Positions 1 to 411 of a stretch of 411 bases of DNA are shown in pieces. Source of the stretch: Escherichia coli (GTDB lineage Bacteria; Pseudomonadota; Gammaproteobacteria; Enterobacterales; Enterobacteriaceae); NCBI RefSeq assembly GCF_003334335.1, contig NZ_QOWQ01000195.1; one strand, given 5' to 3'. A program made the position numbers. Each line of letters starts with the position of its first letter. Positions within the stretch are counted from its first letter, which is position 1.

Positions 1-411
1 CCGTGTATCACGGGATTACCGTCCGTGTCCGTCAGCGGGGTTTTGTTCACCAGAATACTCTGCAGGCCTTTCACCGGACCTTCAATGGGTCCCTCACCAA
101 TCGCATCAATCACGCTCATCATCTGCGTGGATTTGAGGTTGTCTTTCGCCTCACGCGGTGTGTGCGCCCTGCCGCCACCTTTGCCCATTACATCACCTCT
201 TACCGTGATAATTGTTCACTCACAAAAACAACAGGCACCTCACCGGGTGCCTGCGTCATGACGGAATAAAATTTCTGAATATCTTCACATTTTCACACAC
301 TGACTGTGGCGCTTATAATTTCGCTGCGTTAGTTTTTTTTTGCCCGAGTAACAAAAACAACTCCTTAACATTAATCTTCATTTGTCTGTCCCCGCAGCTC
401 CGCGATCACTG

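Follow-up and report, generated by a model that had tools for sequence, protein, structure and literature searches.

A conserved T-run at the 5' boundary of pasB, a prophage-borne small RNA gene of Escherichia coli

Phase-variable homopolymeric tracts are the contingency loci of Neisseria, Haemophilus and Campylobacter. UTP-sensitive reiterative transcription, as at pyrBI, codBA and upp, needs a run that starts at +2 to +4; the initially transcribed region of upp is GA-T8-G. The DNA analysed here (the window, a stretch of 411 nucleotides from an E. coli prophage) resembles the contingency loci in carrying a mononucleotide run of nine near a promoter, and resembles pyrBI, codBA and upp in that a T-run lies close downstream of that promoter. 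However, the run is located neither in a conserved ORF nor between -35 and -10, and its length is nearly fixed over hundreds of isolates; it also starts at a predicted position of about +8 instead of +2 to +4 and is G-interrupted in most copies.

The locus itself has a described counterpart in PasB (E2348CN_0006), a small RNA (sRNA) encoded between E2348C_1436 and E2348C_1437 on prophage PP6 of EPEC E2348/69 (Pearl Mizrahi et al. 2021, PMC8550237). Table S6 of that paper places PasB on the minus strand of NC_011601.1, from 1466343 to 1466261 (83 nt), with a 5' end set from coverage and northern size. The same 83-nt model is used in the preprint of Zhu, Shabalina and Storz on the distribution of Pas sRNAs (2026; bioRxiv 10.64898/2026.05.13.724894). 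In E2348/69, PasB is abundant (baseMean 482 and 1082) and depends strongly on Hfq, with log2 fold changes of -6.8 and -2.4 in the hfq mutant (one strain), and the lysogen hardly expresses genes I and J (baseMean about 5-15). Thus, PasB has a promoter of its own and is transcribed antisense to the late operon. AgvB, AsxR and HnrS/EcOnc10-12 of EHEC and EPEC are likewise Hfq-associated sRNAs that lambdoid prophages carry as independent units, but they belong to different loci and have no sequence similarity to the pasB region. AgvB and AsxR were rejected as occupants of the gap between I and J because the literature puts both at the PR' moron site; HnrS (EcOnc10-12) was rejected as an EHEC homologue with a mapped start because its Sakai coordinates adjoin the Sp12 lysis genes, a different locus.

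The window covers the gap between the tail genes I and J of a lambdoid E. coli prophage. This gap is 240 bp long, and positions 189-411 are wholly intergenic, since J starts at 188 on the minus strand and the stop codon of the tail assembly gene I falls at window-equivalent positions 429-431, just beyond the window end. The prophage of E. coli EC2, the source genome, and two further complete genomes match the window at 100% identity; the complete-genome collection contains 6,152 related copies, spread over 1,900 records, and 149 phage records, most of them from Stx-converting phages, have related copies as well. The window aligns to NC_011601.1 1466683-1466273 on the minus strand (locus L002), so that a window position is converted to a record position by subtracting it from 1466684. 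On this mapping PasB spans window-equivalent positions 341-423 on the plus strand, and the published gene model opens with the final T of the run. The reverse complement of the published northern probe starts at window position 396 and is complete in the untruncated locus (L001). Over the 83 nt, the window lineage differs from published PasB at two sites, position 27 (C>A) and position 33 (G>A), and is identical in terminator, U7 tail and promoter; the 'position 27' variant of the preprint (10.64898/2026.05.13.724894) is the same C/A difference, which confirms the numbering. The I-J gap thus carries pasB, a published gene for an Hfq-dependent sRNA antisense to I, J and the late operon. The window shares with PP6 of E2348/69 its place in the gap between the I and J homologues and the antisense orientation, and differs in bearing a rare T9 allele instead of TG-T7.

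The features of this DNA, in window coordinates, are as follows.

1-188, minus strand: 5' end of J, the tail tip or host-specificity gene, with its ATG at 188-186 (RefSeq annotation of identical and near-identical loci)
222-254 (hairpin 254-231), minus strand: intrinsic-terminator-like hairpin of 9 bp, 6 of them GC, with a U-rich tail, from scans
274-289, plus strand: CRP-consensus-like site TCTGAATATCTTCACA upstream of the -35, with one mismatch to TGTGA-N6-TCACA
285-371 (28 aa) and 313-381 (22 aa), minus strand: two mechanical small ORFs, non-conserved and not genes
292-319, plus strand: sigma-70-type promoter, almost certainly that of pasB, with TTCACA (292-297), a 16-nt spacer and TATAAT (314-319), 11 of 12 matches
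299-333, plus strand: predicted RNA hairpin, the proposed terminator stem, with 5' arm 299-311, a 10-nt loop at 312-321 that holds the -10, and 3' arm 322-333
333-341, plus strand: T9 run (U-tract in plus-strand RNA), a rare allele of a conserved T6-T9 run
334, plus strand: allele-defining substitution, T in the window and G in the majority TG-T7
341-411, plus strand (window part of 341-423): PasB body, from Table S6 and the probe match, cut by the window 12 nt before its 3' end
351-368, plus strand: A-rich AAC-AAA-AAC-AAC (ARN-like) followed by CUCCUU, candidate PasB elements
391-397 (5' arm), 409-415 (3' arm) and 417-423 (U7 tail), plus strand: PasB terminator, with 3' arm and tail outside the window

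PasB is absent from Rfam 15, and no Rfam family came near threshold when searched with either the window or the full-length locus. Archaeal C/D-box snoRNA models matched the minus strand at 69-126, inside the J coding sequence, with 17 bits against a gathering score of 40, and were dismissed as chance matches to GATGATGA-type motifs. Gene I of EC2 (L001 3429-4009, to the right of the window) is a frameshifted pseudogene in which one C is missing from CCACCACG, and owing to this frameshift the EC2 prophage may be defective at gene I.

The usual distance between a -10 hexamer and the start of transcription is 7 nt, from which the start of pasB is inferred at G326. The sequence TTCACA-16-TATAAT at 292-319 is almost certainly the PasB promoter, to judge from its match to consensus; its -35-like and -10-like hexamers keep the same geometry across all subfamilies, the -10 being TATAAT, GATAAT or TATCAT. 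The run accordingly sits just downstream of a strong plus-strand -10 and upstream of a transcribed target, as the preliminary description had it, and the target can now be named as PasB. Alternative -10 hexamers closer to the run (TAGTTT at 330-335) and promoters for other sigma factors were also considered, but inspection by eye showed no credible -35 or extended -10 for any of them. TTCACA is doubled 8 bp apart on the plus strand at 284-297 (TTCACA-TT-TTCACA): the upstream copy forms the right half of the CRP-like site, and the downstream copy, which reads TTCTGT in the Stx type, is the -35. The CRP-like site is kept in all subfamilies, and a match of this quality arises in 7 of 200 shuffles. 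Its centre would lie at about -44.5 relative to the predicted start, an unusual position, and its assignment to CRP is speculative. Reported PasB levels in LB at stationary phase exceed those in DMEM during exponential growth, in line with glucose repression.

Within the RNA, all 17 aligned variants keep an A-rich motif followed by (C/U)UCC(U/C)U, with UCC invariant, despite their differing sequences; the counterpart of CUCCUU is CUCCCU in the Stx type and UUCCUU in the 1720a-02 and PhiR5_1 types. This pattern suggests that 351-368 holds candidate Hfq distal-face and anti-Shine-Dalgarno seed elements of PasB; the preprint locates the seed nearer the terminator (10.64898/2026.05.13.724894). The PasB terminator has a 7-bp stem, invariant across 17 variants, followed by U7, and the window ends inside this stem. 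In Stx-type copies its U-tail is more variable than the 5' run (T6 in L097 and L099, T10 in L098, Stx2a_WGPS8). In the portion of RIL-seq Table S3 of PMC8550237 that was consulted, the strongest PasB chimera is with an intergenic RNA beside pasA, on the opposite strand (743482-743611; 774 chimeras), which may point to sRNA-sRNA or sponge pairing across two prophages.

The run itself reads TTTTTTTTT on the plus strand and A9 on the minus strand, flanked by G332 and G342. It is the sole run of at least 8 in the 6.4-kb source locus, and 20,000 mononucleotide shuffles give P=0.0089 for a run of at least 9 in the whole window and P=0.0038 in the intergenic positions 189-411. The corresponding sequence is TAG-T-G-TTTTTTT-GCCC in E2348/69 and TAG-TTTTTTTTT-GCCC in the window: T9 is a single G>T substitution at 334 of the common TG-T7 allele, with length unchanged. 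Among 82 copies (80 IMG/VR contigs sharing the exact PasB 5' segment, plus the EC2 and E2348/69 loci), TG-T7 accounts for 68, TG-T6 for 7, TG-T8, T8 and T9 for 2 each and TG-T6-CT for 1; one of the two T9 copies is the window's own genome. A second survey covered 5,426 complete E. coli genomes with 68-70-nt queries and a strict E-value, where the band at 99% or above denotes an exact match. Of the 904 records that carry this lineage, 883 match TG-T7 exactly, 4 match T9 and 2 match TG-T8, with no exact match to T8, T10 or TG-T6 on these flanks; the confirmed length variants number only 2. A T10 allele had been deduced from two 70-nt matches and was discarded, as the genomes concerned carry TG-T8. 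In JNEC-KY204, one of the T9 genomes, the whole intergenic region is identical to the window and all 8 differing sites lie in J, a pattern that indicates one T9 haplotype on a mosaic J background. JNEC-KY176 likewise carries T9.

The preliminary description took the run to be prone to slipped-strand length changes that could shift the frame of a candidate small ORF, and suggested a comparison of isolates. As a contingency tract, the run would change length frequently and thereby toggle the small ORF or the sRNA. Length does vary at a low level: two T8 copies in one genome have 0 mismatches to the window over 203 flanking bases, so that a one-base change exists within the pure-run lineage, TG-T6 and TG-T8 similarly stand on otherwise identical flanks, and run length spans 6 to 9 between subfamilies. 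Within lineages, however, length is almost invariant, which was the outcome named beforehand as contrary to slippage. One allele occupies 883 of the 904 complete-genome records, from which T8 and T10 are absent, and of the 466 records of the Stx-phage subfamily (CAG-T6; 1,547 copies in total), at least 400 match T6 exactly and not one matches T7. The T9 allele arose by substitution and not by a change in length, and the run lies 3' of the -10, so its length cannot alter the -35/-10 spacing. Small ORFs do exist mechanically on the minus strand, but they are non-conserved: run-length variants give them unrelated C-termini, some subfamilies have no ORF at all, and their N-terminal codons are conserved because they mirror conserved PasB sequence on the opposite strand. 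There is therefore no frame to shift. Phase variation at this T-run is essentially refuted, and the chance that the run is a contingency tract is very slight; it behaves like an ordinary terminator or leader tract, not a slippage switch.

Across subfamilies the run is more constant than its surroundings. Six to nine T are kept at the same position in every subfamily sampled, never fewer than six, in the forms TG-T7/8, CCG-T6/8/9, CCA-T6, CAG-T6 and AA-T8; the sampled subfamilies amount to only about four independent lineages. The three bases preceding the run and the bases following it differ between subfamilies, and at least six T are retained even in lineages about 80% identical. The run might still be a neutral low-complexity remnant, for example the leftover of an insertion that placed pasB between I and J, and its tolerance of lengths from 6 to 9 together with a viable G/T polymorphism speaks for loose constraint. 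This is improbable in view of the retention of six or more T at one position in such diverged lineages while neighbouring bases change, the low probability of the run by chance, and the better conservation of the pasB/intergenic region than of gene I (about 98% vs 92% identity between EC2 and E2348/69). The run is thus firmly placed as a conserved element at the 5' boundary of the pasB unit.

Folding of plus-strand positions 296-345 gives a 12-bp hairpin that ends at the first T of the run (dG -11.6 kcal/mol; z -2.2; 4 of 200 shuffles equally stable). The stem ends 0-1 nt 5' of the run in all subfamilies, with dG from -8 to -16, although the segments that pair differ in part: the main family pairs GUUAGUG with CACUGAC, the 1720a-02 type pairs GCGUUACCG with UGGUGGCGC, and the Stx type pairs GGGCG.U.ACAG with CUGUACGCCC (ACAG with CUGU). 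Owing to G.U pairs, most variants form the more stable stem on the plus strand (-9.8 to -14.5, against about -5 to -8 on the minus strand). The hairpin has z from -2 to -3.3 in 9 of 12 distinct variants; in the other 3 the fold is no more stable than shuffles. RNAalifold retains just an invariant 6-bp helix, with 0 compensatory or double changes. In 825 kb of prophage DNA of the same kind, 40 of the 98 other distinct contexts with at least seven T are hairpin-abutted and terminator-like, and this set includes PasB's own terminator, with an 11-nt loop and similar dG.

Since the hairpin ends exactly at the run in all subfamilies and is more stable on the plus strand, the run may be the U-tract of a plus-strand intrinsic terminator that overlaps the pasB promoter; we give this, on the strength of the predicted folds, a little under an even chance. 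The likeness to intrinsic terminators consists in a stable stem-loop followed at once by 6-9 U, strand-specific through G.U pairs, and in a hairpin dG similar to that of PasB's own terminator. The element differs in its long (10-13 nt), AU-rich loop that doubles as the -10, and no terminated transcript is known. A consensus terminator scan, which accepts short loops of 3-8 nt, did not call the hairpin, whose loop of 10-13 nt exceeds this limit; in the window it was missed on account of an AU-rich loop of 10 nt (limit 8) and of three G.U pairs in the stem. Both arms overlap the promoter spacer and the start-site bases, and promoter function alone could conserve them.

Under this proposal, the promoter spacer and the first transcribed bases would supply the terminator stem, and the -10 would lie in its loop. 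A plus-strand polymerase that came in from upstream, antisense to J, would copy the two arms, so that the nascent RNA would fold and elongation would end within the run; pasB would thereby be insulated and a 5'-extended PasB prevented. A polymerase that initiates at pasB's own promoter (about G326) would copy the 3' arm only and read through. In the TG-T7 allele the G of 'TG' is paired and the stem is 2 bp longer (-15.9 vs -11.6 kcal/mol for T9). The T9 substitution replaces this G and therefore gives a weaker stem and a longer U-tract: the loss of two stem pairs (from about -15.9 to -11.6 kcal/mol) and gain of two U would be a quantitative change, not a switch. No sigma-70-like promoter was found on either strand in the 3.3 kb upstream, nor any source of plus-strand transcription. 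No Hfq-bound RIL-seq fragment is reported from the segment upstream of the run, and the consulted part of the EPEC 3'-end tables (TRS paper) has no entry at the locus; both results neither support nor exclude a terminated upstream RNA.

The late-operon strand has an intrinsic-terminator-like hairpin of its own, at 222-254, which immediately precedes the J ribosome-binding site and lies between that site and the pasB promoter. Its stem is invariant and its loop variable among four diverged loci. This hairpin and the plus-strand hairpin with its T-run bracket an AT-rich block that is conserved, an arrangement reminiscent of a bidirectional insulator separating I/pasB from J.

The pasB promoter predicts a primary RNA of 98 nt that would start GCGUUAG-U9, longer than the published 83-nt species. 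The run could then be the U-rich leader of a PasB precursor (start G326, about 98 nt, U-run at +8 to +16), with the single-stranded U-run serving as a processing site (for example, for RNase E) or as an Hfq contact, and cleavage yielding the stable 83-nt species. A near-consensus promoter of conserved geometry agrees with such a precursor, as do the invariant GCGTTA at predicted +1 to +6 and a run that is unpaired in the consensus structure. Moreover, no recorded start lies 5' of the 3' edge of the run: the published 5' end is at 341, and the RIL-seq fragment that reaches furthest 5' starts at 1466344 (window 340). The RIL-seq protocol itself involves trimming with RNase. The mismatch between predicted and published 5' ends may reflect processing in the single-stranded U-run, an approximate published end, or a start elsewhere than the promoter predicts. 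RNase E prefers U at +2, a preference that the observed 5' end mismatches. In addition, no precursor is reported for PasB, a helix predicted between the U-run and the A-run is weak (z about -1) and without covariation, and the strand-specific hairpin abutting the run is left unexplained. A leader role is possible but, on balance, rather unlikely; it can coexist with termination in the run, and both may hold. A 5' helix of the U-run with the downstream AAC-AAA-AAC-AAC was rejected, as it appears only in the single-sequence fold, is absent from the consensus fold and has no covariation beyond the trivial. A full-text literature search with the PasB 5' sequence returned no paper.

A published 5' end located at the run would also fit a UTP-sensing site as at codBA and upp, where stuttering after initiation would couple PasB output to UTP, and AG-T9-G indeed resembles the initially transcribed region of upp. 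However, the only credible -10 (predicted start 326) puts the start of the run at +8, and the majority allele interrupts the run with a G; such sensing is highly improbable here.

The pasB locus is already known and the finding is an ordinary one: it assigns an anonymous homopolymer to a transcription unit already in the literature and shows that this homopolymer is no contingency switch. The published pasB models (PMC8550237 and 10.64898/2026.05.13.724894) start at the last T, so the run, the promoter and the hairpin were outside what was analysed. The new points are modest, namely that these models omit a near-consensus promoter and a strand-specific hairpin that, with the run, resembles an upstream terminator. 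Studies of PasB expression, of its true 5' end or of the TG-T7 and T9 alleles should cover these 50 bases. It is also conceivable, though improbable, that the terminator hairpin houses the pasB promoter by design, the -10 occupying the loop and the start falling in the 3' arm, such that a single 45-nt element both stops transcription antisense to J and launches the sRNA, the TG-T7 and T9 alleles tuning the balance. If this were true, TG-T7 versus T9 would set the dose or the 5' end of PasB, and hence its regulon across pathotypes.
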